In this document: positions 222 to 921 of the stretch, piece after piece
Numbering within the stretch: the first letter of the stretch is position 1
Layout: every line of letters begins with the position of its first letter
Origin: a virus
Lineage: Duplodnaviria > Heunggongvirae > Uroviricota > Caudoviricetes
Strand: one strand, 5' to 3'
DNA: 13,917 nucleotides
IMG/VR virus record: IMGVR_UViG_2751185972_000005
Program-made: the position numbers and the translations under genes
Notes under the pieces: model-generated
Database searches by the model: none
What the model was told of the DNA's origin: nothing
Seen by the model: only the letters and a program-made list of their open reading frames with translations

Positions 222-921
222 TTACTGAGAAAGTTTATTGATGGAAAGGAAACCGCCGAAATTACCGGTATTGTTGCGCAACTCACACCCGCGCATACAC
301 TTGCTGCATTTGTCCTTCCGGATATCCGTCGTTGGTTTGTCGAACTCGTCAGCCACTGCCCTGCCCGTGTAACCACACTCATCAGAACGGTAGGTCCACA
401 TACAGGTATTCGCCAGCATGATACGCCCCGGGAAAACCGCGCCATCCGTCTCCGTTGGTGTGGCCAGCACAAAAGAGGCACTGACCGCGCTCAGTTCGCT
501 GCACTGCTCGATGCGCCAGCGGCTGATCACCTCCTGCTCCGGATCGGCGTCACTGTTTCCGTTGACGAAGTTCACCGCATCCAGAAAACGGGCGTAAACC
601 TTACGCCGGACCACCGTTCCGCCGACCAGACTCTGCAGATCTTCCGCCATCCCGGCGACCATACCGTACAGGTTAGAAACCGTCAGCGTGGGGCGCGTAC
701 TGGTGCCTTTGCCATTCAGTTCAAAACCACTCCCCCTGAATGGGATACGGCTGATACTGTCGCCCCTGCCAGGTGACCGGCTCACCTTTTTCGTTCTGCT
801 CATTACAGAAAAAATAACGTTCTCCACCGACCTCTGTCAGGTCGATTTCCCAGAGCACCACGCTGGCCGACTGCTCCGCACGGGTGCATTCATTCAGTGT
901 TTCCTGCCGGATATCCTGCAT
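222..921 (-). pseudogene. L: Minor tail protein L (lambda gpL-like), reading frame broken by a +1 insertion in a C5 run (top strand 732-736)
   Basis: Track ORF 721..921 (66 aa, MQDIRQETLNECTRAEQSASVVLWEIDLTEVGGERYFFCNEQNEKGEPVTWQGRQYQPYPIQG then EWF-stop) matches the gpL N-terminus. Track ORF 222..827 carries the rest from GSGFELNGKGTSTRPTLTVSNLYGMV to INKLSQ in a different frame. Minus-strand CAGGGGGAGTGG has five G where four would give IQGSGFELNG. Confidence 0.85.

Follow-up and report, generated by a model that had tools for sequence, protein, structure and literature searches.

Gene L of the lambda-like prophage studied here very probably carries a true, vertically inherited +1 frameshift, in which a run of four G residues has become a run of five (G4 to G5), so that the gene for the tail-tip hub would be inactive in a defective prophage of a Shigella genome. 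We refer to the whole stretch of DNA that was analysed (13,917 nucleotides; IMG/VR record IMGVR_UViG_2751185972_000005) as the window. L of the window has a stop after 66 codons and counts as a pseudogene within the lambda gpL family, of which it shows all of the features examined apart from an intact frame.

Gene L and its place in the late region

The window corresponds to the late region of a lambda-like prophage, carried on the minus strand, in which the genes from high coordinates down are A (cut by an insertion sequence), W, B, C, D, E, FI, FII, Z, U, V, G, T, H, M, L, and the start of K. In the list of open reading frames, gene M (921-1250, minus strand) is intact, encodes a protein of 109 aa, and has a stop codon that overlaps the start of L; many E. 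coli prophages encode exactly this M protein, next to L. The 5' part of K, which encodes a C40 peptidase (1-217, minus strand), runs off the window and lies with L on one segment of Shigella type. It was assigned as K from the annotation of the homologous region in an E. coli prophage (L001), and to that segment from the 99.8% identity of window positions 1-947 to ten Shigella loci from separate assemblies (L002-L011), with two mismatches and no gap. The ORF map and the annotated homologous regions together indicate that the M-L-K order of the lambda-like tail module is present. Note that G has, close to its end (4257-4263, minus strand) and as in lambda, the heptamer GGGAAAG of the G/GT -1 frameshift; this is the only programmed frameshift expected in the module, and it looks intact.

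The frameshift site in L is a run of five C residues on the plus strand at 732-736 (ctCCCCCtga at plus-strand positions 730-739), and thus G5 on the minus strand, on which L is read. Intact L genes carry G4, so that the run in the window is one base longer. The truncated frame (721-921, minus strand) translates as MQDIRQ...QPYPIQGEWF-stop, a product of 66 aa that is made up of 63 native gpL residues followed by E-W-F, with the TGA at 721-723. The adjacent frame (222-737, minus strand) is free of stops and translates as RGSGFELNGKGTSTRP...INKLSQ-stop; followed from 737 down to 222 as the continuation of L it reads SGFELNGKGTSTRP..., again ending in INKLSQ and a stop. The open stretch from 222 to 731 (minus strand) of this next frame supplies the rest of L, namely residues 64-232 of the repaired protein, and holds the cysteines of the C-terminal Fe-S domain. 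Direct reading and translation thus bear out the initial annotation, made from the letters of the window, which had described the five-base run at this position, the frame break at IQGEWF-stop, and the continuation of the protein in the next frame.

Both pieces of L exceed the cut-off of 25 bits that we used for a match to the PF05100 profile (Phage_tail_L). The first piece matches profile positions 1-36 (54.1 bits, E=1.7e-14) and the second matches positions 35-206 (259.4 bits, E=2.4e-77); these coordinates abut, so that the break in the frame is a clean one of a single base. Consistent with this, deletion of one C yields a protein of 232 aa that aligns colinearly with lambda gpL, is identical to it at 215 of 232 positions (93%), and has cysteines at the same eight positions. 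Moreover, the nearest intact relative in complete E. coli genomes, prophage L001, has CCCC at the site, and its alignment to the window shows a single extra C in the latter. The further claim of the initial annotation, that a +1 insertion disrupts L, is therefore upheld by the change from G4 to G5 in the L001 alignment, by the two PF05100 pieces, and by the identity of the repaired protein to gpL. Note that the length of the run is in itself unremarkable, since the window contains 16 runs of exactly five G or C residues; the meaning of the G5 run in L comes from the comparison with intact homologues.

Lambda gene L is like L of the window in its position between M and K, in its length (232 aa, after repair of the window copy), and in its four Fe-S cysteines. 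Lambda gpL is intact, however, whereas the frame in the window is broken after residue 63 and leaves only the 66-aa fragment. In lambda gpL, the hub domain (residues 1-166) completes the last tail ring together with gpJ, and in the Fe-S domain (residues 154-232) Cys173, Cys182, Cys205, and Cys212 hold a [4Fe-4S] cluster, as seen in the structure of the tail tip (PMC10721106). The expected product of the window gene would be a fragment without most of the hub domain and without the whole of the Fe-S domain, and by analogy with the lambda structure a tail tip could presumably not be built from it.

The five-base run among relatives of the prophage

A 361-base query taken from around the site found L in 4,205 E. 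coli genomes, with best matches that all span 360 bases. We also used a probe of 46 nt with flanks so short that only a C5 run allows a match to be seeded. Neither 5,426 complete E. coli genomes nor 50,697 phage records gave a match to this C5 probe, and the corresponding C4 control probe matched 1,953 places in 1,666 E. coli genomes, all of them in L. That C5 occurs at none of these 1,953 E. coli places, the flanks of which are identical, argues that the site is neither a common site of assembly error nor a mutational hotspot, and on this count an error-prone or hypermutable site was rejected.

Records of Shigella flexneri CCH060 and CDC 796-83, as well as a UniRef entry (Tax=Shigella), name precisely this 66-aa product, which was met with on 64 contigs, from NCBI and from the assemblies that Logan made of public runs, in a total of 109 index blocks. 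Among the ten Shigella loci that match the K-L end of the window is CP026811, a closed chromosome that is given in a paper's listing as S. flexneri serotype 6 strain 64-5500. The initial annotation had suggested a comparison with orthologous prophages, and in that comparison tract length turned out to be fixed within each sequence type: L001 has CCCC, the run is G5 in all 11 of the fetched Shigella loci that share the L-K sequence type of the window, and it is G4 in all 12 fetched loci of the other type. A look-up with the 142-aa C-terminal fragment of L found other, more divergent Shigella remnants, with 91-96% identity. Scans with exact 40-mers did not detect the G5 allele in sets comprising one genome per species, the viral contigs of IMG/VR, and the metagenome contigs of JGI, which may reflect poor representation of Shigella as a species of its own in those sets.

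These findings bear on the choice that the initial annotation had offered between polymerase slippage in vivo and a homopolymer sequencing error. The error side of that choice is strongly disfavoured, given the 64 contigs with the 66-aa product and the presence of G5 at 11 of 11 loci; an origin in vivo is favoured, with slippage itself as its probable mechanism. A sequencing artefact should affect one record only, and here the same allele is found in at least ten separate assemblies and on 64 contigs. In addition, a chance miscall would need to recreate precisely the allele that is fixed in the window's own sequence type, and is thus not credible. The evidence favours a real inherited mutation, one that would be identical by descent with the lesion of the Shigella remnants.

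We entertained the idea that the G5 run is a recoding or switch site, at which +1 ribosomal frameshifting (by a tRNA-Gly that slips from one GGG to the GGG overlapping it), transcriptional slippage, or phase variation would give rise to full-length gpL, for example in tail-like particles. With GGG-G, the tRNA in the P site can indeed pair perfectly again after a +1 shift, and the 169 downstream codons are open with all cysteines kept, but an open downstream frame is expected anyway from the 99.8% identity among the copies. Furthermore, the zero-frame codon that follows the shift site is GAG and not a stop, GAG is not known as a slow codon, and no stimulatory element for a +1 shift was seen in the sequence upstream of the G run. 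Five bases is also far below the length of the runs that drive transcriptional slippage or phase variation, contingency tracts usually having seven bases or more. Although almost all of the tail module, from Z through stf, is still there in the Shigella remnants, these host elements are full of IS elements and strain-specific lesions. The two-frame arrangement is absent from all of the phage records and complete E. coli genomes, in which L is a single in-frame gene, and the only lengths found are 4 and 5, each confined to one sequence type, with no variation among close relatives. We consider it extremely unlikely that the run serves such a purpose, and would put low-efficiency +1 recoding, or a reversible slippage switch, that supplies a small amount of full-length gpL for tail-like particles equally close to nil. 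As candidates in their own right, a phase-variable homopolymer was rejected because the tract is of five bases and of fixed length within each sequence type, and a programmed frameshift was rejected because G5 is found only in IS-ridden Shigella remnants, in a decayed context and with no conservation.

The mosaic junction and the probable origin of the K-L segment

The closest known elements that share the lesion are the ipaH-linked Shigella remnants (CP026811; CCH060, CDC 796-83), which have the same 66-aa product, the same G5, and 945 of 947 bases in common with the window over the partial K and L. (Genes for ipaH lie beyond the tail-fibre genes in L003-L005 and L028, the loci whose fetched flank reaches past those genes.) The remnants differ from the window in having another M, a tape measure of 1013 aa, and IS66 in place of the head genes, whereas the window has an E. 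coli-like M, an H of the 857-aa type, and a full head module up to the IS-cut A. Over positions 942-13541 it is instead the prophage of E. coli GZ04-0086 (NZ_CP042336; L001) that the window resembles, with five differences, comprising three single-base indels and two substitutions; the Shigella counterparts L012, L013, and L016 show little beyond the same three indels over this interval, and their contigs stop at the IS junction at 13541. The GZ04-0086 prophage and these Shigella counterparts carry G4 and an intact L of 232 aa, and they are of the other K-L type, with 80 differences in window positions 1-500. The variant of the T protein that is found in the window is annotated 'MULTISPECIES [Shigella]'.

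An allele table places the junction between these two types in the interval 842-941, with the ipaH-remnant type of Shigella to the left (1-841) and the GZ04-0086-like type of E. coli to the right (942 onward). The window agrees with L002-L011 at sites 483, 638, 646, 651, 656, 732, and 841, as well as at about 80 sites within 1-500; at sites 942, 945, 948, and beyond it agrees with L001, L012, and L016 and not with the remnants. The switch of alleles between 841 and 942 argues for a crossover within 842-941, around the stop of M and the start of L. A Logan contig, L016, is the same as window positions 793-13532 apart from three indels, and has the Shigella-type G at 841 together with the E. coli-type C at 942 and T at 945; it independently supports the hybrid junction, on one marker only. 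Of the contigs retrieved by the T and M look-ups, which came from many Shigella and E. coli, none spans both the hybrid junction and the G run, so that G5 in the window copy is corroborated through its linkage to a sequence type rather than directly.

Shigella holds several remnants of lambdoid tail modules, and the L paralogues in them share the C-terminal half of the protein and differ in the middle (for example AYPIQGSGFELNGRGCAARP..., which has G4). Partial L proteins of S. sonnei, S. flexneri, and S. boydii represent further G4 paralogues with a different middle section. Differences of this kind cause short-read contigs to break inside L. The G4 paralogues with a different middle have no bearing on the G5 allele.

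It is against this background that an artefact in the record has to be weighed, whether as a homopolymer miscall or as a chimera, induced by repeats, in which the K-L of another, truly G5 copy was attached to the prophage. K-L is repeated among the Shigella remnants, short-read contigs break in or near L, and no independent contig covers the junction and the G run; the window also has three single-base deletions of its own (described below), which make some error in the record conceivable. However, more than 80 linked differences place L of the window in the sequence type in which G5 is fixed, the absence of C5 from all 1,953 E. coli places that the C4 probe matched, with their identical flanks, indicates that assemblies rarely err in this way, and L016 shows the same hybrid combination, namely G at 841 alongside C at 942 and T at 945. 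We therefore regard an artefact as improbable. Still less probable is an independent recurrence, in which the change from G4 to G5 would have arisen separately in the window prophage and in the ipaH-linked remnants. The contexts upstream of L do differ completely between the two (an 857-aa as against a 1013-aa type of H; head genes as against IS66), but they have the whole L-K type in common, with two mismatches in 947 bp, and the Shigella prophages L012, L013, and L015, which are otherwise identical to that of the window and have an E. coli-type L-K, carry G4 and an intact L. Recurrence would, moreover, have to be a rare event, as 0 of 1,953 E. coli sites have G5.

The simplest reading is that the frameshift arrived in the window prophage with a recombined L-K segment that was already mutated, by gene conversion, reciprocal exchange, or replacement. 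The extra base would most likely have had a single origin, in a prophage remnant of Shigella in which the short G run slipped during replication, and the lesion would have persisted because a dead prophage is under no selection for tail assembly. Homologous recombination near the M/L boundary would then have joined the mutated K-L to the E. coli-like A-to-M module, in the direction and by the mechanism that we infer. A dead L allele copied between resident prophages by gene conversion could amount to the spread of a pseudogene within a genome.

Other lesions and decay of the prophage

The prophage is damaged in more places than L. The end of an IS3-family element (13541-13917) interrupts A, the gene for the large subunit of terminase, about 99 codons from the start of the gene, as judged from the point at which homology to L001 stops (13541) and from the translation of orfA; we take this orfA to resemble that of IS629. 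In Shigella, the contigs L012-L018 break off either at this IS junction or some 25 bases into it, which argues that the insertion is ancestral to that lineage. Because the IS cuts A, the prophage is defective regardless of the state of L, and was so already.

Over window positions 1-13541 the E. coli prophage L001 is 99.3% identical to the window, and past position 500 there are eleven differing positions, four of which are single-base indels: an added C at 732 in L, a missing C at 1624 and a missing G at 2187 in H, and a missing G at 7672 in E. The three deletions each shorten a run of two bases (CC to C at 1624, GG to G at 2187 and at 7672), such that H is broken twice and the gene for the major capsid protein, E, once. 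Neither Dam nor Dcm sites were found in the sequence surrounding the deletions. The H and E deletions occur in none of about 20 relatives, among them Logan contigs that match the window in all other respects over about 12 kb, and the truncated products of H (558 aa) and E (194 aa) are absent from an index of 15 billion proteins. The deletions are either mutations private to the strain or errors in the record. Thus, where the initial annotation had set the insertion in L apart from the other three lesions as the one that bears the signature of a homopolymer, the implied contrast is reversed, in that the lesion in L is the only one to be corroborated elsewhere.

Of note, H also contains a run of seven G residues (C7 on the plus strand, 1580-1586) that differs in length among relatives: it has an additional base in L012, L015, and L019, where no H gene is called, and lacks one in L024-L026. 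The Logan contigs L017 and L018 end at 1591 and 1639, adjoining this run, which may be a real slippage-prone tract or a weak spot for assembly.

The Shigella remnants have extra lesions in Z, G, H, K, and J that are specific to the strain, and the fact that these differ among strains indicates a pattern of neutral decay. With respect to frameshifts in tail genes, stf is dispensable for plaque formation and L is an essential component of the tail tip. Laboratory lambda likewise has a single-base frameshift that persists in a lambdoid tail gene, namely stf (PMC10721106). Unlike the viable lambda with the stf frameshift, the prophage with the lesion in L would be marked by it as dead. The decay of cryptic prophages through frameshifts in IS-rich Shigella, and mosaic exchange among lambdoid elements, have been described (PMC8072062, PMC9046306).

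What we describe is ordinary prophage decay, known in kind, and the allele has already been deposited for several Shigella strains. The annotation of L in the window should give one frameshifted pseudogene in place of two small genes, and the extra base should not be edited out as a sequencing error. An indel in a homopolymer is not automatically the most suspect lesion of a record, since here it is the deletions outside homopolymers that are uncorroborated. Moreover, the G5 run would serve as a marker of identity by descent, pointing to a K-L segment that came from the ipaH-linked type of Shigella remnant through recombination at the M/L boundary, and thus to a further case of mosaic exchange among the resident lambdoid prophages of IS-rich Shigella genomes.
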